A stretch of 64,000 nucleotides of DNA from Escherichia coli (lineage in GTDB: Bacteria > Pseudomonadota > Gammaproteobacteria > Enterobacterales > Enterobacteriaceae): assembly GCF_009931435.1 (NCBI RefSeq), contig NZ_CP043414.1; one strand, written 5' to 3'. Below are positions 1-50,724 of this stretch, piece after piece. Made by a program: the position numbers and the translations under genes. The stretch's first letter is position 1. Each line of letters opens with the position of its first letter. The notes beneath the pieces are model-generated. The model did not search any database. It was not told the origin of the DNA and was given only the letters and a program-made list of their open reading frames with translations.

Positions 1-985
1 TAAAACGCGGAGCCATCGTTGAAAGATAATCACACAGCGGTTTACCAATACCTCGGCGCGGCGGGTTAACCAGCACCAGCTCCGGCACCTCTCCCTGAGT
101 GGTGACAAACTGAGTGGAGTCCAGCGCCTGAAATTGCAAACGCGTTAAGCCCAGTTCAGCAGCTGACTGCTTCGCACAGGCAATGGCCTCTGGCGCAATT
201 TCGATCCCGGTTAACTGCATGTCAGGCGTCGCGCAGTGTAAACCAAAGCCGCCCACGCCACAGAACAGATCCCACATATGTTTAACCGGCAACTGTCGTA
301 CCCAGTCGCGCGCAGTAGCGTACAGCTGGCTGGCGACTACCGGATTAGTCTGGAAGAAACTTTGTGGACGGATCCACAGCGGCACATCGTTAAAACGCTC
401 AGCCAGCGCCTGTTGTTCGCTCAGATAAATCTCCGTCTCCCCTTCCATAATCGCCATATGTATCGGCTGAATATTGGCGGTAATGACTTTCAGCTGCGGC
501 AGTTGTTCCTGTAACCACGGCAGCGCCTTACGCAGTTGTGCCAGCTTGGTTTCGGAACGCAGTACAAAGCGCAACATCATGCCACCATCACTTTGGCTTT
601 CAGTCAGCAGAATGTATTTCAGTTCGCCACGCTTACGCGCCACATTGTAGGGGGTTAGCCCCGCACGGGCGATAAACGGTTTTAACGCCGCAAAAACGGG
701 CGCAAATGAGGAGGGATAAAGCGGACAATCGCAAAGGTCTTCTGGTGTGCCGTCGCGATGCAGCATACCGAGCAGTGGTTTTTCAACGCTACCACTCACC
801 ACCATTTTGGCTTTATTACGAAACCCTTGCTCCGGGCCTGACACCGGCTCGCACCATTCCTCAACCGAAAAGTCGGCGAGCAGATTTTTAAGATCGGCGG
901 TTTTAGCGGAGAGTTGCTCTGGAATCAGCTGCGTTATCCACTGACAGGAACGACAGCGACCCGCGTCGTAAAGTGCGCACTGCAT
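1..985 (-). CDS. rlmC: 23S rRNA (uracil747-C5)-methyltransferase RlmC (RumB), 5' part; 3' end lies outside the window
   Basis: Minus-strand frame open from ATG at about 985 to the window edge; translation starts [39 protein letters not shown] and contains the SAM-methyltransferase motif [10 protein letters not shown]. Missing from the ORF track because its stop is outside the window. Confidence 0.85.
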
Positions 986-24176: not shown

Positions 24177-26525
24177 CTACTCTTTTACTAATTTTCCACT
24201 TTTATCCCAGGCGGAGAACGGCATGGGTTTCTGGTACAGATACCCCTGAGCCTGAACACATCCTAATTTGATTAATTCGCGCGCAACGTCTTCGCTCTCT
24301 ACGCCTTCCGCAATCACCGGGATCCGGTTATAGCGTGCCAGATCGAAAATAATGCGCACAATTTTTCCCGCAGTACCGAAAATATCGCCGGTAAATTGTG
24401 AGTCCACTTTTATGCTATCTGGATTAATTTCATAAAAACGTTTCAGGTTTGACAAACCGGTGCCAAAGTCATCAATCGATATCCGTACCCCTTGTTTACG
24501 CAGTTGTTCAATATTGAGATAAAAATGTTCATTAATTCGCTCGATCACAGTTTCAGTGATCTCAACACAGAGGCTGTTCGCCTTCAGGCCATTTTCTTTC
24601 ATGATGGTGGTAAAACGCTCATGAAAGTGTGGTTCGTTTAACTGCCAGGGCGAAACATTAATATGCAGTAAGAAACCGTCCTTCAGCGACGCACGCTGAC
24701 TAAAATGTCTAAATTCACCCATTGCCGTTTTAATAATCTGATAACCCAGCTCATTGATAAACCCGATATCTTCAGCAATGGTAATGAACTTCAGCGGTGA
24801 AATGATCCCCCGCTCCGCAGACACCCAACGGCACAACGCCTCCGCGCCCAGAATGGCGCGGGTGTTAATATCAACGATCGGTTGATAGACCAGGAATAGT
24901 TCGCCAATTTCCATTGCATGGCGAATATTACGCGCAATCCAAATATTCTCTTCTATTTCGTTGAGTTTCGCGTCATCACAGAAAATAAACTCTGAGAACA
25001 TATGGTCACGGATGCTGGAAATCGCCAGTTTCAGTTTTTCTGCGTAACTCCAGGCGTTTTCTCCCTGCAAAGGTTCACAAATAGCAGACTTATGGATGCG
25101 CAGATTGCGGTAGCCAAAGCTGCTGTCAAAATCGTTTATCGTCGCTATCTTACGGGTAAACGTCTGGACATTTTCCCGGCACAGGAGTAAATAAAGATCG
25201 GCATTGAATGTCACGATATCGCAGCATTGTGCATATTTCTCGGCAATTCGCTGACACAGTTTTCTGACGATTTTATTACGCTCATCGACACCAAACACCG
25301 CTTCAACGGCTTCCAGGCCACACAGTTTGATGATCCCCACAGCCAGATACTGATTATTGTTGGACTCAATAATCGCCATATTTTTAATAAAACCGCTTTC
25401 TTGATCGTAAGAGATCAGCGAGAGCAATTTATTCGAACGTTCAATTTCGGCATCTTTCATTTCCGCGATCGAATTTTTGATGCTGATAATCTCTTTCGCA
25501 TCGCCTTCGCGAATTTTCAGAGCCTCGATTTGATCCGTTGAGTCGGGCAAAAATGCCAGCGTATTAACCAGCTCGGTCATTTCAGAAAATTGCCGACGGA
25601 ACACACGAGTGGTCATTAAATAAACCACCAGCAATACGATAATAATGAAAGCAAACGGCAGATAAAAAAGTTTATCTGATGCGTTCAATAAATTACCGCC
25701 AGGATAATAAAAATAGATTTCGAATAATGCGTTGTTTGGCACCGCTGATGTTTTTTCGATATATTCAGTATCGACAGAATCAATAATATTATAATTGCCT
25801 TCGCTATTATAAATAATCAGTTTTTCACGAGCGAGTTGATTCTTGGCAATGATCTCATGGCCTTGTTTCAAAAATAGAACTTCATCATTAGCGCTGATTT
25901 GATCAAGATACTCGTTCAGATATCGCCAGTTTAAATCGACATGAATTTTATCCACCACTAACAAATCGTGATCTTTGCCGTTGATGCGTAGCGTAAAAGA
26001 GATACATTTTTTACCCGGACGATCAAAGCAATTGTATGCCGGATTCCAGCTGTTGTTAGAGTCATCTGAAGCCACAGACCACGGTCGTTTCGATGGGTTA
26101 AAATCGGCAAAAATAACCCGCCCTGACTCGTCGACAAGCGGTCCATTTAATTGTTCCTGATGATAAACAACGATTTTATCATTTGCCCTCCGCGAAAAGA
26201 GATAATATTTATTATCATCAAGTACCAGTCCCACCGAGTCTAAAAATGGCATCATTTCCATTTTAAGGATCACAGCGCGTTGAATCTCCTCTGTATTTTT
26301 TAATAAATACAGTGAGTCCTTTAATGTCAGGGCCGAACGTTCAATATCTTTAAAGAAATAGCCAACGTTTTTCTGAATAAGTTCAAAGCGGCTATCGGCA
26401 CGTTTTACCGCGCGTTCCGATACCAGTTGATAGTTAATGATGAAAAAAAGGCCAATAAATGACAGTGCTGCCAATAAAAATAAAATTATCAGCCTTATCT
26501 TTATCTTTTCGTATAAACTCAGCAT
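24177..26525 (-). CDS. pdeI: c-di-GMP phosphodiesterase PdeI (YliE), EAL domain
   Basis: Trimmed to [23 protein letters not shown] (782 aa); EAL motif (EALCRW) in the C-terminal domain. Confidence 0.85.
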
Positions 26526-26702
26526 GTTAATACATTTAACAAAATAACTGTCTGAACGCTGTGCCGCTGCAAAAACAGTCCCTTGCTGCGGCTTTTTAAC
26601 CAAATTACCCGATTCTACAAAATCAGCAGAAAGTTACAACACTTGCTTAGGGCAATAATTTCCTGTGAGGTGATTACCCTTTCAAGCAATATTCAAACGT
26701 AA

Positions 26703-27614
26703 CTATCCTTTAATTTTCGGATCCAGCGCATCGCGTAAACCATCCCCCAGCAAATTGAACGCCAGTACAGTCAGAAAAATAGCCAGGGCCGGAAAAACAG
26801 CGACATGCGGCGCGATAACCATATCCGCTCGAGCCTCATTGAGCATCGCTCCCCACTCTGGTGTCGGCGGCTGCGCGCCGAGGCCGAGAAACGACAGGCT
26901 GGCCGCAGAGATAATCGAGGTGCCAATGCGCATGGTGAAAAACACCACGATAGAAGAGACGGTCCCAGGCAGAATATGACACAATAAAATGGTCATATCG
27001 CTGGCACCAATACTGCGTGCTGACTCAATAAAGGTTTGCTGTTTCAACACCAGCGTATTGCCGCGCACCAGTCGGGCAAACGCGGGGATGGAAAAAATGG
27101 CAACGGCGATAATCACGTTAGCGATGCCGCTTCCCAACACCGCAACAACAGCGATCGCCAGTAAAATACCCGGGAAGGCAAACAGCACATCGCAAATGCG
27201 CATGATCAGCCGATCCCACCAGCCTTCATAATATCCCGCCAGCAAGCCCAGCAACGTCCCGATCGCCGCACCGATAAACACGGCAAACACGCCCGCCGCC
27301 AGCGAGATTTGCGCACCAACCAGGACACGGCTGAAAATGTCGCGTCCCAGTGAATCGACGCCAAACCAGTGCTGCAAAGAAGGTCCGTTATTCAGATTGT
27401 CATAATCGAAAAAATTTTCGGCGTCATAGGGGGCGATCCAGCGTGCAAAAATGGCCACCACAATCAATAAAATGACGAATAATGCGGCGGCCATCGCCAT
27501 ATGCTGATGGCGAAATCGTCGCCAGAATTCATGCCACGGTGTACGTACCTGGTCAGGTTTAACCAATGGCATGGCGTTTAACACCGCCTGACGTCGCCAG
27601 TTAAATATTCGCAT
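26703..27614 (-). CDS. gsiD: Glutathione ABC transporter permease GsiD
   Basis: 303-aa ABC permease (DppC-like). Confidence 0.9.
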
Positions 27615-40539: not shown

Positions 40540-41799
40540 ATGACTTTTACCTATGAGACACTGCCAACAGATGCGAAAACGGCTATCCGTAAGATGAAAG
40601 CGGAGCTGCGACAACAGATCGGCGATGTACAACAGGTCTTCGATAAACTCTCTGCAAAAATCGAAGCACGTGTAGCAGAAATAGACGCCCTCAAAGGGCA
40701 AGGATTACCGGTTTGGCCGGAAGTCCCATATAGCGACGTTGCAGCAGGTACAGTGAGTGAAGCCACGCGCAATGAAATTAAACGTCGCGGCTGTGCAGTA
40801 ATTAAAGGCCATTTCCCCCGCGAACAGGCACTGGCATGGGATCGCGCAATGCTTGACTATCTTGATGCCAATCATTTTGATGATGTTTATAAAGGTCCCG
40901 GCGACAGCTTCTTTGGATCGCTGGAGGCATCTCGTCCTGAAATCTACCCTATTTACTGGTCGCAGGCACAAATGCAGGCGCGACAAAGTGACAATATGGC
41001 GGCGCTGCAATCTTTCCTTAACCGCCTGTGGAAGTCTGAAAGCAACGGCAGGCAGTGGTTTGATCCCGATATTAGCGTGATCTATCCGGACAGGATCCGC
41101 CGCCGCCCACCAGGCACGACGTCTAAAGGTCTGGGTGCACACACTGATTCTGGGGCGCTGGAACGTTGGTTATTACCCGCTTATCAGCGTGTTTTTGCCC
41201 ATGTTTTCAACGGTAATGTCGACGATTACGATCCGTGGGATGCTGCATACCGTACTGATGTTGAAGAGTACACGGTAGATAACACCACAAAATGTTCGGT
41301 GTTCCGCACTTTTCAAGGCTGGACGGCGCTTTCCGATATGTTACCAGGACAGGGATTATTGCATGTGGTGCCAATCCCGGAAGCGATGGCGTATGTTTTA
41401 TTGCGCCCACTGCTGGATGACGTACCGGACGATGAGTTGTGTGGGGTCGCTCCTGGCAAAGTTCTGCCCATTTCAGAGAGATGGCATCCACTACTGATTA
41501 AAGCACTCACTTCCATTCCAGCTATTACAGCGGGGGATTCCGTCTGGTGGCACTGCGACGTGATCCACTCCGTCGCACCGGTAAATAATCAACAAGGCTG
41601 GGGGAATGTGATGTATATCCCTGCCGCGCCGATGTGTGAGAAAAACCGGGCTTATGCGCATAACGTCAGGAAAGCACTGGAAAAAGGGGCATCACCGGGC
41701 GATTTCCCTCGAGAAGATTATGAAGCAAACTGGGATGGCCGATTTACGCTGGATGATCTGAACATTCACGGTAAGCGCGCGCTGGGCATGGATGTTTGA
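40540..41799 (+). CDS. ybiU: YbiU (DUF1479 family protein)
   Basis: 419-aa ORF in the conserved position. Confidence 0.8.
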   Translation: MTFTYETLPTDAKTAIRKMKAELRQQIGDVQQVFDKLSAKIEARVAEIDALKGQGLPVWPEVPYSDVAAGTVSEATRNEIKRRGCAVIKGHFPREQALAWDRAMLDYLDANHFDDVYKGPGDSFFGSLEASRPEIYPIYWSQAQMQARQSDNMAALQSFLNRLWKSESNGRQWFDPDISVIYPDRIRRRPPGTTSKGLGAHTDSGALERWLLPAYQRVFAHVFNGNVDDYDPWDAAYRTDVEEYTVDNTTKCSVFRTFQGWTALSDMLPGQGLLHVVPIPEAMAYVLLRPLLDDVPDDELCGVAPGKVLPISERWHPLLIKALTSIPAITAGDSVWWHCDVIHSVAPVNNQQGWGNVMYIPAAPMCEKNRAYAHNVRKALEKGASPGDFPREDYEANWDGRFTLDDLNIHGKRALGMDV

Positions 41800-44837: not shown

Positions 44838-45956
44838 CTACCAGGCCGGGAGCATAACGAATAAAACGTATCCCACCAGCGCCGCCCACAACAGCATCGG
44901 TATCGAATAAAGATGAAAACGCCACCAGATACGGCGATCGTTCGCCATCCGTAATGCAATCAAATTTGCCAGCGATCCGGGTAATAAACCAAAGCCACCG
45001 ACGTTTACCGCCCATGCCAGTAATAAAGACGGTGGCACATAATTGAGGAGCAAAATCGTGCTCGGCACATTACTGATCACCTGCGATAAACCAATTGCCG
45101 TTAACCATAATCCGGGTTCGGATAAATGGCTCACATTGCTCAACACGCCCTGCAAAGCTGGCAGTTGGGTCAGCAAATGGACGTCGATAAACATCGCCAT
45201 AAATACCAGCAGCAGCGTCCAGTCCACGCTGATCACCACGCGACGAGCCAGCAGCGCAAAGCCCGCCGCTACAATCACCAGTCCCCACAGCTCTTGTTTT
45301 AACTCCAGCGCCGTCAGAAAGACGATATACAGCCCCAGACAACTCCACACCAGCCGCGGTTTCCACTCAGGTGTTTGCGCCCCCGTATGATATTGCAGCG
45401 CCTTTCCAGGGAAACAACACCAGCACAGTAGCAGGAGTGTCAGCATCATTGCGCCAGCCAGCGGTGCCATTTGGGCAATAAACCCGGCAAACGAAAGACC
45501 AGAACGACCCCAGATAAGAATATTTTGCGGGTTGCCAATCGGCGTCAGTAGCGAACCCGCATTGACTGCCAGCGCCTCAAAAATAATCAGTCGATTAACC
45601 GGGATCTCACACAGTCTTTTTAGCGTGATGGTCAGCGGAACAACTATAAACAGCGCGACATCGTTGGTCAGAAAGGTAGAAAGTAGCGCCGCCGCCAGCA
45701 CCATAAACATCGCCAGCCGTCGCTCCGTAGCAAAGCGGCGCACCATTTTGCGCCCCAGCACATCAAAATAACCGCTTAACTCCACACCTTTGGTCAGCAG
45801 CATCAGACCGCTTAAGGTGATGATGGTGTGCCAGTCGATAGCAGCAGGCCAGGATTTCGGTGCAAAGGGAACAAAAAAACTTAATCCGATGCCAACAAGA
45901 ATTAATAACTGAAAAAAACGATCGCCTTGCAGCGTGCGTAAAAAAGGCAGGCTCAT
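44838..45956 (-). CDS. ybiR: Putative anion transporter YbiR
   Basis: 372-aa polytopic membrane protein. Confidence 0.85.
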
Positions 45957-46420
45957 TTGGCACCGTGTTTCTGGGTAAACAAACGAAAGGCATCCAGCGT
46001 CTCTTCACTAACATGGTGCTCCATGCCTTCCGCGTCGCGACGGGCGATTTCCGGACTGACGCCCAACACCAACAAGAAATTTTCGACTATCTGATGTCGC
46101 TCGCGGCTTTCCTGCGCCAGTTTCTCTCCTTCTGCCGTTAAAAACACGCCACGCCAGGGGATCATTTCAATCAGCCCCATGGTTGCCAGTCGTTTGAGCA
46201 TTTTAGCCACCGTCGGTTGCGAAACGCCCAGACGAGCAGCCATGTCCACCTGACGAGCTTCCCCCACTTCCCTGATCAAGTCAGAAATCAGCTCAACGTA
46301 ATCATCAATAAGCTCGCGCCGGTGTGCCTCTCTGACCTGGCGGAACCCTTCAACGTGCTCTTCCACATTCACTAACTGCGTCACTTTTTTTGCTGTTGGC
46401 GTACCTGCGCGACGACTCAT
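45953..46420 (-). CDS. mntR: Manganese-responsive transcriptional regulator MntR (DtxR family)
   Basis: 155-aa [43 protein letters not shown]; 4-nt overlap with ybiR. Confidence 0.9.
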
Positions 46421-46511: not shown

Positions 46512-46546
46512 TTTAGCAATAGCTATATAATATAGCCATTGCTAAA
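46512..46546. promoter_or_regulatory. 35-bp near-perfect palindrome about 95 bp upstream of mntR; candidate operator
   Basis: tttagcaatagctatat-a-atatagccattgctaaa, 17-bp arms with one mismatch, read directly; centre is TATA-rich. Confidence 0.4.
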
Positions 46547-46824
46547 TACATAAAATCAAATAAAATCATAATGTTAACAAAACAAAAAAAATAATCAATG
46601 TCGCAAAAATGTCTCACAAAACAAAAGCCATAACTTATTTGCTTGTTTTTTTATAGTGTCAGTATTAATCTAGTATATCAAAATGTTATCACTTCAATTA
46701 TTCTCTGCTTAACATTTATTTAAGAAATAATATTTTTAAGCTCTTTAAAAAAACCTTAAATAACGCTGATAGTTTCTTAGGAAAACTTAACGATAGTGGT
46801 AAATTAATCCCAAAGGACTAAAAA

Positions 46825-48060
46825 ATGGTATTAAGTAACTGTATTCAATGTCAGTCATGCAAATTTATATATAGAGTTAGGGTTGGTATTGGGTTTGATA
46901 AATACCAAAGACATTATATGGACTGTTTTGAGTGTAATATTCCTATTGTTTTTGCTATACGAACAGACCCACCAAATGCTTATCTTGAAGCGGAAGAAAA
47001 CTGCCTAATTGTTGAACATAGTACAGACCACAAGGTTGTTAACTTCCATCCGGGATGTGCTTTTAATAAAGATGAGATACATCAGTCACTGATATTCCCA
47101 TCTATTGAATTGACACAAATGATTCATAAACATATGAGGATGCCGAAAGGACAACGCCTTATAAGTGCCTCTCATCAATTTGATATTCCCAACGCCCCCT
47201 CCAAATGGAATTATTTAAAATCAATAATAAAACTTATTAATGAAGGAAAGAAAGACAAAGCTCAGAATACAGCAAAGCTTTATATGCAATCAAGAAATAA
47301 AGAGTTACCTTTGTATAATGAAGATGATAGCTATTCCTCTACATCTCTAATCTATGAGTTTTTAGATTGGCTTTTCTATCCTCGAGTACATGATATAGCC
47401 GATTCCATTAAAAAAACAATTGATGACCTTAAAGAACAAAATTTGTTGGATGATTTTTACGCTTTCTATAAAGAAAATTTAAAATCCGAAAATGAACAAA
47501 GATACATCAATATAATATCAGATTTCATGGCTCGTAGAGATCATTTCGGGCAGTTAATCTATTACGCAAGAATTAACAACGATGCAATAGACGATAAGAT
47601 AATTAGCTCTAAGAACTTCGATAATGTAAGAAATTATTATGGAGATGCTTATGAAAGTCTGACATCTAACATGACTATTTTAGCATGTATTAATAACATC
47701 GTCAGTGGAAGGGCATTCGATCAGTTCAAGCAAATGACATTGAATAAATACATAAAGGATGTAAATAAAGACAGTAAAACAAACCCATTTAAGGACAACC
47801 CTTTATTTAGCGCATTTTGTGAAGATGATTTAGAGTCAGCAATAAGAAATGGTTCTCATCATGCCTCTATATGGCATGACGGAGAGAGTATTCGATATAG
47901 AAGTGGCGGAACTGGCGCAGAAAGAGAAATAAGCTATACAAAATATATTCACCTTTGTAATAAGCTAACTCTTAAAATCGTAAGTTTGTGGTTAATTGAA
48001 CTTCATATCCAACATATTTACGAAAAAGATGATAATAGCTATGCATGGTTTCATCTTTAA
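46825..48060 (+). CDS. Hypothetical protein, 411 aa, AT-rich cargo gene with N-terminal Cys cluster (possible zinc ribbon); function unknown
   Basis: Long ORF with AAGGA RBS 8 nt upstream of ATG; sampled lines are about 28-37 percent G+C versus about 50 percent in flanking genes; N-terminus CIQCQSC...CFEC; rest rich in K/N/D/E/Y; no family recognised by eye. Confidence 0.6.
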   Translation: MVLSNCIQCQSCKFIYRVRVGIGFDKYQRHYMDCFECNIPIVFAIRTDPPNAYLEAEENCLIVEHSTDHKVVNFHPGCAFNKDEIHQSLIFPSIELTQMIHKHMRMPKGQRLISASHQFDIPNAPSKWNYLKSIIKLINEGKKDKAQNTAKLYMQSRNKELPLYNEDDSYSSTSLIYEFLDWLFYPRVHDIADSIKKTIDDLKEQNLLDDFYAFYKENLKSENEQRYINIISDFMARRDHFGQLIYYARINNDAIDDKIISSKNFDNVRNYYGDAYESLTSNMTILACINNIVSGRAFDQFKQMTLNKYIKDVNKDSKTNPFKDNPLFSAFCEDDLESAIRNGSHHASIWHDGESIRYRSGGTGAEREISYTKYIHLCNKLTLKIVSLWLIELHIQHIYEKDDNSYAWFHL

Positions 48061-48116
48061 GTTAAATATTTGATTCACTAATTTTCAGTTTCTACTCACT
48101 CTAATGATTGTACATA

Positions 48117-48143
48117 GCCCGCACCATTCTTGGTATTGCGGGC
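48117..48143 (+). terminator. Weak hairpin downstream of the 411-aa gene
   Basis: gcccgca-13 nt loop-tgcgggc followed by ttt. Confidence 0.3.
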
Positions 48144-48553
48144 TTTCAGCCGTTTATATCACTTAACGCAATTAGATCATGCAACTTTACACAATATGGT
48201 TTTTTCTATTATTTTTCAGTTGGTTGAATGGATTAGCCATCACACAACTGATCTATAAAACTGAAAAACACTGAAATTCTTTTCAATCTTTTCAGTGGCA
48301 GCTCTCCGGCAAACCGCCAACAGTGGCGCAGCCTGACGCTCACGTTTGTAGAAAAATAAAACTGAAAAATTTTATCGATCCAGAAACCGCAGGCGGGTGC
48401 GGTGTAGTGCCATTTTGGTCTGCGAAAGATTTATTTTGTCAGTGCGTAGTGCCGTCAGCGCAACGTGACAGCACAGATCCTTTTGTGGTGTTACGGGATG
48501 GTGGTCAGAGAAAAAAAGTGCTTAGAATGCTTCTGGTTGCGTGAGAATACAGG

Positions 48554-48579
48554 TATAAAAAACCCGCACTAGGCGGGTA
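48554..48579 (-). terminator. Rho-independent terminator of the 84-aa gene (minus strand)
   Basis: Plus strand reads aaaaaa-acccgc-actag-gcgggt; on the minus strand this is a perfect 6-bp GC stem followed by a T-run, directly after the ORF stop. Confidence 0.55.
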
Positions 48580-48589
48580 CTAAAGAGAG

Positions 48590-48844
48590 CTATTTCATTT
48601 CGTTAAGTGCGTACGCACCTCTATCAGTGAGTGCAAAAAAGCCATCCCTTACGCTGGGTTGAATCAACCCAAACATACGCAATTCACCCAGTATTTGTTC
48701 TGAGCGACTACCAGCACCAGAATGCTTAATTAGTGCAAATTCAGGCTGTGCTTCTTCACTGAGCAAAGTCAATATTTTGACAATGGCGTCACGTTTGCTT
48801 TCATCTGCAATGTCATGGTATGGATTGATGGAACAGGTTACCAT
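48590..48844 (-). CDS. Hypothetical small protein, 84 aa, monocistronic
   Basis: ORF MVTCSINPYHDIADESKRDAIVKILTLLSEEAQPEF... bounded by terminator-like hairpins on both sides; separate transcription unit from the tail operon. Confidence 0.45.
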   Translation of the reverse strand: MVTCSINPYHDIADESKRDAIVKILTLLSEEAQPEFALIKHSGAGSRSEQILGELRMFGLIQPSVRDGFFALTDRGAYALNEMK

Positions 48845-49020: not shown

Positions 49021-50724
49021 TCAGGCGATGATTTTCTGGTACTTACTTCGGGTCTGTCCTGCTTTCTCTGCTGTCTGGGTAAATGCTCCGGCATTGGTTG
49101 GCGTACCAACACTGGGGTGCGAATGACTCGCACATTGCTGCGCCAGCTCTGCCAGTAAATCAATGGTGTCCAACATCATGGTCAGCGTGTTTACACTCTC
49201 ACTGCCGATATGGATGGTTGGCCCCATAATCTGCTGACCGCCCGATGCTACCGATTTGCGTAATGCAGTAATCTTTTCAGTCAGGCTTTCGCCAACCTCC
49301 ACGGCTACAGCACCGCCCACTTTAATGGACTGCTGTCCTGCTATGTCCGTTTCTTCGTTTCCTTCAATGCTGGCCAGCCTGTTACCTTTCACGGCCTGGC
49401 TAAAATCCCCGGCACTGACCTGCTGAATGGCTCCGGCTAGCAGGGTGGCGGTCCCCACCACAATGGTTTTATCCGTGGCTTTAACCGTGGTTTCGCGACT
49501 GACCAGATCACGTTGTTCTGTATCTGCTTTTACCGTTCGCACCATCGATGTTTCACTGATGGTCTGATCGGTCTGCCTTACCCAGTCACCCGCCAGAGTC
49601 ACCCTCTGGGATACTTCTTCCCGCTGCTGCTGCAATTGCTCACCGGGTTTAACGTCCGGCAGACTGGTGCCATCCGGTAGCGTCTGCCTGATAAAAGGTT
49701 TATCCGGTCTGCCTCCTGTGAATGCGACCTCAACCAGCGTCCCTTCTGGCGGGAACTGAAACATACCTGAATCATTCCCGGCCATTGGTACCGGCAGCGG
49801 CACCGCTGAATAAACAGGCGTCTGATTGTCCGGATTTCCGTCTGCGTCAAGCAGCTGCACGTCCACGGCGTAACGTGGCCGGAAGGGATCGGCAAAGTTA
49901 CCGCTTTTTACCGGCTCTGAATGCGCCACGACTCTGGCCATCTTTGGCAAATGAAGCCCGGATGCCAGTTCCGGGTAATGGCTTTCAATCTGCCGTTGCG
50001 CTGGTGTTTTCTGCAAAGGTTTACCCGTTGCGCGGTTTCTCGGCGTCCATGTGATCGCCATCGTGTCATTAGTCAGGTGAACTTTAGTCACGCGTTCACC
50101 GTTCATCTCCACCCCTGGCCGCATAGTCTGGATCACTGGTAATGTCACAGAGTTACCGCCAGCAGCCCCCTGGCTGAACTCTGACGGGATTTCTACTGGA
50201 CGACCGGCAAACAATGACTTTTCTGCGCCGCCGACGTAAAGCGAACCATCAGGTAACTGGTACCAGATGTAATCCTGGATACTGAACGCCCTGCCCAGAT
50301 TGTTCAGCAACTGATAACCAGTACCGTTATGGGTAAAATGTGGGATGGGGGTATCGCTGTACTGTGCATCAGGCACACTGACCGTGATCCCGCTGTTTTC
50401 TTCCAGCCAGCCCGCAATTTCACGCAAAGTCGGGTGTTGAAACGAACATGGCCACATCCTTTCAAACACACCTACCAGCTCACGAATGAATAGGCGCTGA
50501 AAACCGTTTTCAGCGGGCTGCGATCGCTCCACATACCCCGTAAACCAGCGCAAAAGCAGATCGGTATACCCCACATCCAGCCGCACCAGTTTTCCGGTGT
50601 AATCGGTTGTTGTCTCTGCGGTGATGAAGCCCCGGCCGCAGCTGTTCAGCTCCAGTACCAGGCTGACATCCACCAGGTGAACTTCATCCGTTGAAAGGTA
50701 AAGACGTTTTACTGGTTTCATCAT
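49021..50724 (-). CDS. Phage baseplate hub/spike protein (gpD/VgrG-like), 567 aa
   Basis: Last gene of the tail operon; C-terminal third is a low-complexity V/T/G/S-rich repeat region typical of beta-helical spikes; call is by architecture and context only. Confidence 0.5.
   Translation of the reverse strand: MMKPVKRLYLSTDEVHLVDVSLVLELNSCGRGFITAETTTDYTGKLVRLDVGYTDLLLRWFTGYVERSQPAENGFQRLFIRELVGVFERMWPCSFQHPTLREIAGWLEENSGITVSVPDAQYSDTPIPHFTHNGTGYQLLNNLGRAFSIQDYIWYQLPDGSLYVGGAEKSLFAGRPVEIPSEFSQGAAGGNSVTLPVIQTMRPGVEMNGERVTKVHLTNDTMAITWTPRNRATGKPLQKTPAQRQIESHYPELASGLHLPKMARVVAHSEPVKSGNFADPFRPRYAVDVQLLDADGNPDNQTPVYSAVPLPVPMAGNDSGMFQFPPEGTLVEVAFTGGRPDKPFIRQTLPDGTSLPDVKPGEQLQQQREEVSQRVTLAGDWVRQTDQTISETSMVRTVKADTEQRDLVSRETTVKATDKTIVVGTATLLAGAIQQVSAGDFSQAVKGNRLASIEGNEETDIAGQQSIKVGGAVAVEVGESLTEKITALRKSVASGGQQIMGPTIHIGSESVNTLTMMLDTIDLLAELAQQCASHSHPSVGTPTNAGAFTQTAEKAGQTRSKYQKIIA

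Follow-up and report, generated by a model that had tools for sequence, protein, structure and literature searches.

A solo, AT-rich gene beside attL of a P2/186-like Escherichia coli prophage encodes a predicted zinc-ribbon and HEPN protein and is a candidate abortive-infection gene

The stretch of Escherichia coli DNA analyzed here (64,000 nucleotides [nt]; RefSeq assembly GCF_009931435.1, contig NZ_CP043414.1), referred to as the window, contains one end of a prophage next to mntR. Just inside that end lies a gene for a protein of 411 amino acids (aa), which we call the cargo gene and whose product, WP_088445653.1, is labeled "hypothetical protein" by RefSeq in E. coli MFDS1016424. The locus, in positions within the window, consists of the following features:

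45953-46420, minus strand: mntR, left neighbor of the cargo gene
46522-46547, no strand: attL core, about 26 bp, marking the left prophage end
46548-46824, plus strand: AT-rich leader of the cargo gene, 23.5% G+C
46813-46817, plus strand: AAGGA Shine-Dalgarno sequence, 7 nt ahead of the start codon, found by direct reading
46825-48060, plus strand: cargo gene, 411 aa, ATG start, RefSeq WP_088445653.1, predicted zinc-ribbon-HEPN family protein
48116-48144, plus strand: GC-rich hairpin (AGCCCGCACC...GCGGGCT), 56 nt after the stop codon, RNA fold z = -2.3
48255-48260, no strand: sharp right edge of the cargo slot, where homology resumes in every sister prophage compared
48590-48844, minus strand: open reading frame (ORF) of 84 aa, with its own terminator-like hairpin at 48578-48562
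49021-50724, minus strand: gene for the baseplate hub, 567 aa, at the end of the conserved tail genes and not cargo (phrog_2258, E 3.5e-276)

Beyond mntR on the left side are ldtB and ybiR. An earlier description of this DNA by a model that saw only its letters (the sequence-only reading) had placed an AT-rich gene with an even more AT-rich leader and a good ribosome-binding site at the prophage edge, between mntR and the end of the tail operon and on the opposite strand. All of this was borne out. The G+C content is 32.6% in the cargo ORF (27.7% at third codon positions, GC3), compared to 50.7% in the window, a Shine-Dalgarno sequence precedes the start codon by 7 nt, and the annotation of the neighbors agrees, with mntR, the 84-aa ORF, the hub gene and the tail operon all on the strand opposite to the cargo gene. 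The whole cassette (46548-48257, 31.3% G+C) is the most AT-rich 1.7-kb stretch of the window (z = -6.3 versus all other stretches of that length). The leader presumably holds the gene's own promoter, and the hairpin at 48116-48144, which is without a long T tract, is a probable weak terminator.

The host prophage is a P2/186-like element of about 30 kb that has integrated between mntR and mntS, in the promoter region of mntS. Its genes include a P2-family capsid, a GPO scaffold, a terminase and an ogr/Delta-like gene, together with a replication endonuclease, CII, Fil and a CI-type repressor, and its integrase is located past the end of the window. Both ends were mapped by alignment of the empty K-12 mntS-mntR intergenic region to the two prophage junctions. 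For K-12 positions 1-244 (reverse complemented), agreement with the window continues up to 46547, and K-12 positions 219-700 match the integrase-side junction in a sister prophage (L020, NZ_CP106924.1). The att core is thus present at both ends of the prophage and once in the empty K-12 site, and its position at 46522-46547 makes the cargo gene the first gene inside attL. The attR site lies outside the window, at about 21820-21850 of L020. Two further features surround the core:

46512-46546, no strand: inverted repeat with 17-nt arms (TTTAGCAATAGCTATAT / ATATAGCCATTGCTAAA) in the mntR-mntS intergenic region, overlapping the att core
46548-46672, no strand: core-adjacent phage sequence, common to prophages with other cargo (blastn versus L002, L003, L016, L017 and L019)

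The second of these is probably the attP arm. The inverted repeat may be the MntR operator of the mntS promoter. Insertion into this palindrome separates the divergent mntR and mntS genes by about 30 kb, and the attL palindrome is nearer perfect than in K-12 (94% complementary) owing to its phage-derived arm.

Comparison with sister prophages by blastn put the left edge of the cargo slot between about 46537 and 46672, depending on the allele. The slot thus has fixed flanks and swappable cargo that includes known defense systems in related prophages, and the cargo gene is a horizontally acquired gene in this attL-proximal hot spot. The hub gene, which marks the prophage type, was found in 49 of 5426 complete E. 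coli genomes; the sequence-only reading had suggested looking for co-occurrence with this prophage type, and only the source strain among those 49 carries the cargo gene at the DNA level. Ten different slot contents were seen, the cargo gene included, and four of them match PADLOC defense or candidate models. Several alleles are without annotation. The contents other than the cargo gene were as follows:

AIPR/AbiU protein, strain 573: PADLOC AbiU, 4.5e-26
345-aa protein, two strains: PADLOC PDC-S64, 4.7e-42
AAA ATPase with an O-acetyltransferase, two strains: PADLOC HEC-04, 8e-33; OLD, Gabija and PtuA families match too
Shosta-like pair with DUF6680, strain 20KM0223N: PADLOC ShosA, 2e-52, and ShosT, 4.7e-10
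470-aa PIN-domain protein with a 193-aa membrane protein, strain mip270_05: no PADLOC match
Three small genes including DUF6338, strain SC477: no PADLOC match
Two small hypothetical genes in a prophage at the ybjL site, strain EcPF15: marginal PADLOC Cas1 match only, E about 0.004-0.01
Acetyl- or acyltransferases, many strains: no PADLOC match

We conclude that the slot is a defense- and exclusion-themed moron site that is not exclusively defensive. The sequence-only reading had proposed that such prophage-end positions hold morons and defense genes, an idea that is strengthened by the sharp edges of the slot and by its AbiU/AIPR, Shosta, OLD/HEC-04-like ATPase, PDC-S64 and PIN alleles. Since acyltransferases occupy the slot as well, position alone is no proof of defense.

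The integrase end of the prophage also carries cargo, namely, a protein of 193 aa that has hydrophobic segments at its two ends (WP_071290238.1; L020 20876-21457, corresponding to NZ_CP106924.1 3152875-3153456). Its cluster is listed in DefensePredictor as a predicted novel defense gene, with a log-odds value of 5.87. A homologue with 71% identity lies beside the PIN protein in the tail-end slot of mip270_05, that is, at the opposite end, which indicates that the same cargo moves between two prophage-end hot spots.

We then investigated the relatives of the cargo protein. A word-indexed search returned 176 relatives, and an exhaustive HMMER scan of 1.84 billion representative proteins returned 281 clusters at an E value of <=0.001, so that the family comprises at least 281 clusters at 50% identity. 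Nearly all of them are about 400 aa long and colinear with the cargo protein. The hosts include Enterobacteriaceae, Vibrio, Shewanella, Aeromonas, Haemophilus, cyanobacteria and Bacteroidota, as well as Variovorax, Gallionella, Desulfovibrio, Nitrospira and rhizobial plasmids. Named members are called "hypothetical protein" or "uncharacterized" in their sources, apart from a few generic labels (two zinc-ribbon [DUF1610], one ABC-transporter [MlaC, JGI] and zinc-finger/thioredoxin-domain labels in the AlphaFold database [AFDB]), and no Pfam domains were found among the named members. A related profile is phrog_13366 (PHROGs v4), which has no functional annotation. This 413-position profile matches 9 of 10 remote members colinearly, with E values down to 2.4e-12, and also a member from IMG/VR (L031), whereas the cargo protein itself matches it only at an E value of 0.28; phrog_13366 is probably a phage-borne branch of the same family.

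Conservation was assessed in an alignment of 93 sequences with identities down to 21%. Ten residues were invariant in all 93 (C9, C12, C34, C37, E277, N291, R341, N342, H346 and Y374), and R296 was conserved in 92. The cysteines follow the pattern C6xxC9xxC12...C34xxC37, in which C6 is not conserved. The sequence-only reading had suggested a zinc ribbon from the N-terminal cysteines, and the invariance of four of them agrees with a motif of that type; weak matches to Pfam Cys_rich_CPXG were obtained for 25 of 43 members at an E value of <=0.1, and with all 93 members Pfam again gave nothing beyond weak zinc-ribbon models. The invariance of R341, N342 and H346 extends to the 17 most remote members as well as to a domain-only alignment.

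An AlphaFold2 model built from 43 sequences was confident (predicted local distance difference test [pLDDT] score, 89.8; predicted template modeling [pTM] score, 0.91). It divides the protein into the following parts:

46825-47049, plus strand: N-terminal beta domain, residues 1 to about 75, seven strands, with the Cys4 set; predicted zinc ribbon
47101-47574, plus strand: middle domain, entirely helical, residues about 93-250, with little conservation except at W128
47578-48024, plus strand: C-terminal HEPN-like helical bundle, residues about 252-400
47845-47862, plus strand: R341-N342-G-S-H345-H346, RNxxxH (Rx4H), the predicted HEPN catalytic motif

The middle domain would serve as a regulatory or sensor scaffold. 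In the model, the C-terminal part is an all-alpha up-down bundle with the motif just before the last core helix, as in HEPN domains: the motif helix (338-345) is followed by a three-strand beta insertion (349-370) and then by the long last helix. The motif itself has the HEPN form Rx4-6H, with a polar residue after the arginine. In a Foldseek search of AFDB50, unannotated family members ranked first. Next came full-length matches to proteins annotated as Cthe-2314-like HEPN (E 1.2e-19; template modeling [TM] score, 0.74), LA2681-like HEPN (E 1.3e-15) and ApeA N-terminal domain (8e-16), as well as SEC-C-motif proteins. The Foldseek probability was 1.0 to three different annotated HEPN families, HEPN domains took the top three ranks in a domain-only structure search, and the closest solved structures were HEPN proteins, including HepT and Csm6 (6tug). 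A profile of the 17 most remote members, searched against a set of 5.8 billion proteins, returned only unannotated family members and no bridge to a Pfam HEPN family.

The invariant motif, the fold and the annotated structural neighbors together are the reason for the HEPN assignment, and, on the basis of the model, the protein very probably belongs to the HEPN superfamily. The structure searches that the sequence-only reading had proposed gave a confident model with HEPN proteins closest among annotated or solved structures. Its statement that the protein has no recognizable family stands for the sequence-model libraries and fails for the C-terminal 160 aa, which the fold and the invariant RNxxxH place in HEPN. 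The predicted combination, in which a Cys4 zinc ribbon is followed by a helical middle domain and then by a split HEPN domain at the C terminus, defines a family that has not been described before.

The cargo gene is a solo gene without a conserved partner. The genes downstream of its orthologues differ and are mutually unrelated (257 aa in Enterobacter, 297 aa in Oscillatoria and 246 aa in Nitrobacteraceae); none of the three has a PADLOC match, and a two-gene system was rejected because they are unrelated to one another. No supported ORF of at least 20 aa that could represent an MNT antitoxin was present in either flank. An RNA antitoxin or riboregulator in the leader was likewise rejected, since only a 1.9-copy 10-nt repeat and no Rfam match at an E value of <=1 were found, searches that do not exclude a novel unstructured RNA.

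The sequence-only reading had named pseudogenization as a possible objection. The gene is intact, with homologues aligning across its full length, and it is under strong purifying selection: a Salmonella allele with 95.5% nucleotide identity, which occupies the same slot in a related prophage inserted elsewhere in the chromosome, gave 0.011 nonsynonymous (dN) and 0.23 synonymous (dS) substitutions per site and a dN/dS ratio of 0.05. In E. coli, the identical protein is always found in the order mntR, cargo gene, 84-aa ORF, and next comes the hub gene, whole or as a fragment, except in the most decayed remnant. Moreover, the cargo gene is intact in decayed prophages of other E. coli assemblies. 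In one of them (L033), only 2.9 kb of prophage is left (cargo gene, 84-aa gene and hub fragment), joined directly to the mntS side; two others (L038 and L039) have several internal deletions and an untouched cargo gene.

Family members were found mostly in mobile DNA. An IMG/VR contig has a 59%-identical orthologue in the same slot, and another phage has a 45%-identical orthologue beside its tape-measure gene. Other members adjoin Gabija and an integrase, form part of the cargo of an integrative and conjugative element (ICE) near PDC-S33 and anti-restriction genes (ArdC, Antirestrict), or lie in a conjugative element, in an integrative island with a Fic/Phd pair and in a Pikeienuella prophage. 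A 70%-identical Enterobacter orthologue belongs to a small P2/186-like remnant with a CI repressor, CP76 and an M15 peptidase, next to the dnaG-rpoD-UDG genes of the host (L004-L007), and is always followed 43 bp downstream by the 257-aa gene, which is without a family (L004 9279-10052). The Nitrobacteraceae member likewise lies just after dnaG-rpoD, reflecting either a shared insertion hot spot or a coincidence.

The gene had already been flagged by a machine-learning screen. In Table S10 of the DefensePredictor study (Science 2026, PMC13092281), the cluster WP_088445653.1, which is exactly this protein, is a "Predicted novel defense gene" with a mean log-odds value of 5.87 (range, 4.79-6.70), above the authors' strict cutoff of 4. 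Its HHblits and Foldseek columns are empty, meaning that no link to a known defense protein was made (PMC13092281), and, as far as the tables of that paper go, it is not among the 42 validated systems (PMC13092281).

Among known systems, ApeA offers the nearest functional parallel. First reported as a single-gene system by Gao et al. 2020, ApeA has about 580 aa, arranged as N-terminal, Mid and split-HEPN domains, and acts as an abortive-infection tRNA anticodon nuclease; it forms doughnut-shaped oligomers and is activated by 5'-phosphorylated deoxydinucleotides and through a ligand pocket (bioRxiv 10.64898/2026.01.26.701840). The cargo protein is likewise a single large polypeptide, and its model has a layout similar to that of ApeA, with a non-catalytic N-terminal part, a helical middle and, at the C terminus, a predicted HEPN domain that is split by an insertion before the last helix (in ApeA, between H3 and H4). 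Both carry an Rx4H motif, and proteins annotated with the ApeA N-terminal domain are full-length Foldseek neighbors of the cargo protein (TM score, 0.64-0.70; E ~1e-15). In contrast, the cargo protein, at 411 aa, is about 170 aa shorter, and its invariant N-terminal Cys4 zinc ribbon has not been described for ApeA. It matched neither the Pfam Apea-like HEPN and ApeA_NTD1 models nor PADLOC. As the sequence requirements for ApeA are thus lacking, we did not file the cargo protein as ApeA; by analogy, it may work like ApeA.

The best annotated structural neighbors, the Cthe_2314-like and LA2681-like proteins, are uncharacterized HEPN families of bacteria that conserve an Rx4-6H motif (Anantharaman et al. 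2013, PMC3710099). However, none of the 93 family members matched either sequence model, and a zinc-ribbon N terminus is undescribed for both, fusions being "None detected" for Cthe_2314 and TPR for LA2681 (PMC3710099). DARNA (PD-T7-3), in which an N-terminal HEPN tRNase is switched on by single-stranded DNA bound to the phage single-stranded DNA-binding protein (bioRxiv 10.64898/2026.02.22.705581), is likewise a single protein borne by prophages or islands that couples its catalytic HEPN domain to a large sensor domain that is non-catalytic, and Csm6 (6tug) is the closest solved HEPN match for both. It differs in having its HEPN domain at the N terminus, that is, in reversed order, in lacking a zinc ribbon and in showing no sequence similarity (no PADLOC match). 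The HEPN toxins of HepT/MNT pairs (PDB 7ae2, 8xdj and 5yep) have about 130 aa and an adjacent MNT antitoxin, whereas the cargo protein is without a partner gene and has 250 extra N-terminal residues. Unlike AbiF-type systems with a type III RNA antitoxin, the cargo gene has no upstream tandem-repeat array or Rfam RNA. As for the location, the P2/P4 hot spots described by Rousset et al. 2022 (PMC9122126) are similar in being sharply bounded variable loci with defense systems in P2-family prophages; the slot described here differs in lying at the att-proximal tail-hub end, next to a different tail module, and in holding acyltransferases as well.

We favor, with a probability of roughly 0.55, the interpretation that the cargo gene encodes a solo ApeA-like HEPN RNase with a zinc ribbon and a helical sensing module, acting as an abortive-infection or exclusion gene of the prophage. 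The RNase activity, the oligomerization, the cue for activation, the target RNA and an anti-phage phenotype are parts that we infer. The lysogen would express the gene from its own AT-rich leader, apart from the phage late operon, and the protein would be kept inactive, its resting form being probably a HEPN dimer or some larger oligomer. Its non-catalytic N-terminal and middle domains would detect a cue that comes from an infecting phage and thereby switch it on. The active protein would then cleave RNA of the cell, the likeliest targets being tRNA anticodon loops or mRNA, in the manner of ApeA, DARNA and PrrC, and the resulting stop in translation would abort the infection and protect the lysogen population together with the resident prophage. 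A broader proposal, to which we give a little less than even odds, is that the gene is the E. coli member of an unrecognized defense family spanning many phyla, in which the Cys4 ribbon and the middle domain sense a cue other than those of ApeA and DARNA; such a family of solo zinc-ribbon-HEPN nucleases would represent a new sensor-effector pairing within HEPN immunity.

Several results weigh against the favored interpretation. Of the cloned DefensePredictor predictions, 45% were validated overall, with a lower rate at low log-odds (PMC13092281). The curated Pfam HEPN models did not match at an E value of <=0.1 in searches with 43 and with 93 members, and NCBIfam gave nothing significant; the same was true of Pfam, as well as PHROGs, for the cargo protein alone. 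Profile searches of PDB sequences with the full-length and domain alignments gave no meaningful match. Defense-system scanning, another suggestion of the sequence-only reading, remained negative: PADLOC, which is expected to include ApeA and PD-T7-3 models (not listed by name), returned nothing for the cargo protein at an E value of <=1 or for 10 remote members at an E value of <=10. A promoter scan in this AT-rich DNA gave no more promoter-like matches than expected from shuffled sequence. No homologue was found in 50,697 deposited phage genomes, most of them lytic. The acyltransferases of the slot are more typical of surface-modifying lysogenic conversion. Finally, the cargo copies in the decayed prophages are nucleotide identical, so that their retention may reflect recent deletion instead of selection and their persistence is only weak evidence for selection.

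Each of the other explanations accounts for part of these data. The gene could be a selfish toxin or addiction module, in which a HEPN nuclease mainly serves to maintain the prophage or island through the death of cells that have lost it, or a stress-activated toxin; there would be no meaningful anti-phage benefit, and the antidote would be intramolecular or an unrecognized host factor. Small HEPN proteins (HepT/MNT) are classical toxins and top structural matches, and the gene travels with integrative elements, ICEs and plasmids and persists in decaying prophages. We nevertheless consider this unlikely, since there is no adjacent antitoxin, MNT gene, conserved partner or RNA repeat array, the conserved non-catalytic N-terminal part of 250 aa suits a sensor better than a bare toxin, and the allelic slot-mates are defense systems.

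Slightly less credit goes to a moron without a defensive role, i.e., a regulatory or RNA-processing enzyme, or else a zinc protein that binds nucleic acid, tuning host physiology or the prophage's own lysis-lysogeny or superinfection behavior, like the lysogenic-conversion genes at prophage ends. Acyltransferase-type conversion genes do occur in the same slot, HEPN domains also function in RNA processing (Las1, Swt1 and Roquin), and a sequence-level link to a validated defense family is missing. The patchy spread across phyla, almost always as mobile-element cargo beside defense or toxin-antitoxin genes, the invariance of the catalytic-type residues and the machine-learning prediction of defense all speak against it. 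It is improbable, moreover, that the C-terminal bundle merely resembles HEPN and that the invariant R, N, H, E, N and Y residues form another site, for example, one acting on DNA or on a small molecule: the motif is exactly RNxxxH with the HEPN-typical polar residue after the arginine, its position directly ahead of the long final helix is the one seen in HepT and ApeA, HEPN domains rank first to third in the domain-only structure search, and the Foldseek probability is 1.0 to three annotated HEPN families. Least probable is a counter-defense enzyme whose HEPN domain degrades cyclic-oligonucleotide signals or defense RNAs of the host or of competing elements, since, although some HEPN domains such as that of Csm6 degrade cyclic oligoadenylates (bioRxiv 10.64898/2026.02.22.705581), Csm6 is among the best structural matches and one ICE member lies near anti-restriction genes, the protein is without a CARF or other nucleotide-sensor domain, is absent from the mostly lytic deposited phage genomes and has defense systems, not anti-defense genes, as slot-mates.

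If the prediction holds, the cargo protein represents a compact, partner-free RNase defense of 411 aa with a new sensing module. The family is widespread yet invisible to Pfam, NCBIfam and PADLOC, and the well-bounded attL-proximal slot can be mined for further systems. A gene flagged by a machine-learning screen without a homology rationale now has a mechanistic hypothesis and candidate residues (R341, H346, C9 and C12); if it is not defensive, it will be a useful negative control for hot-spot-based and machine-learning-based prediction. Many candidates of a similar sort exist, and this one has a specific, testable mechanism and a defined hot spot.

To the right of the slot, a non-coding stretch of about 330 bp (48258-48589) is 82-97% conserved in sister prophages with differing cargo. 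The motif ATAAAACTGAAAAA occurs twice, at 48255 and 48356, with the first copy exactly on the slot boundary. The stretch has no Rfam match, and the one ORF in it, a 73-aa frame with a GTG start, is unconvincing; the stretch could be a site for recombination or regulation. The adjoining 84-aa ORF, for which PADLOC, NCBIfam and PHROGs gave no family match, is present or absent among sister prophages regardless of the cargo allele, and a different ORF of 110 aa takes its position in some of them (L045 and L046). Elsewhere in the window, a second patch of low G+C content (about 25000-26750, 38-41%) was set aside as the ordinary and unrelated core gene pdeI (EAL-domain). A frameshifted IS621 (IS110-family) transposase lies between ybiU and ybiT on the minus strand (about 40791-41770), and the IS621 copy is intact at the same place in at least one other strain (L002).

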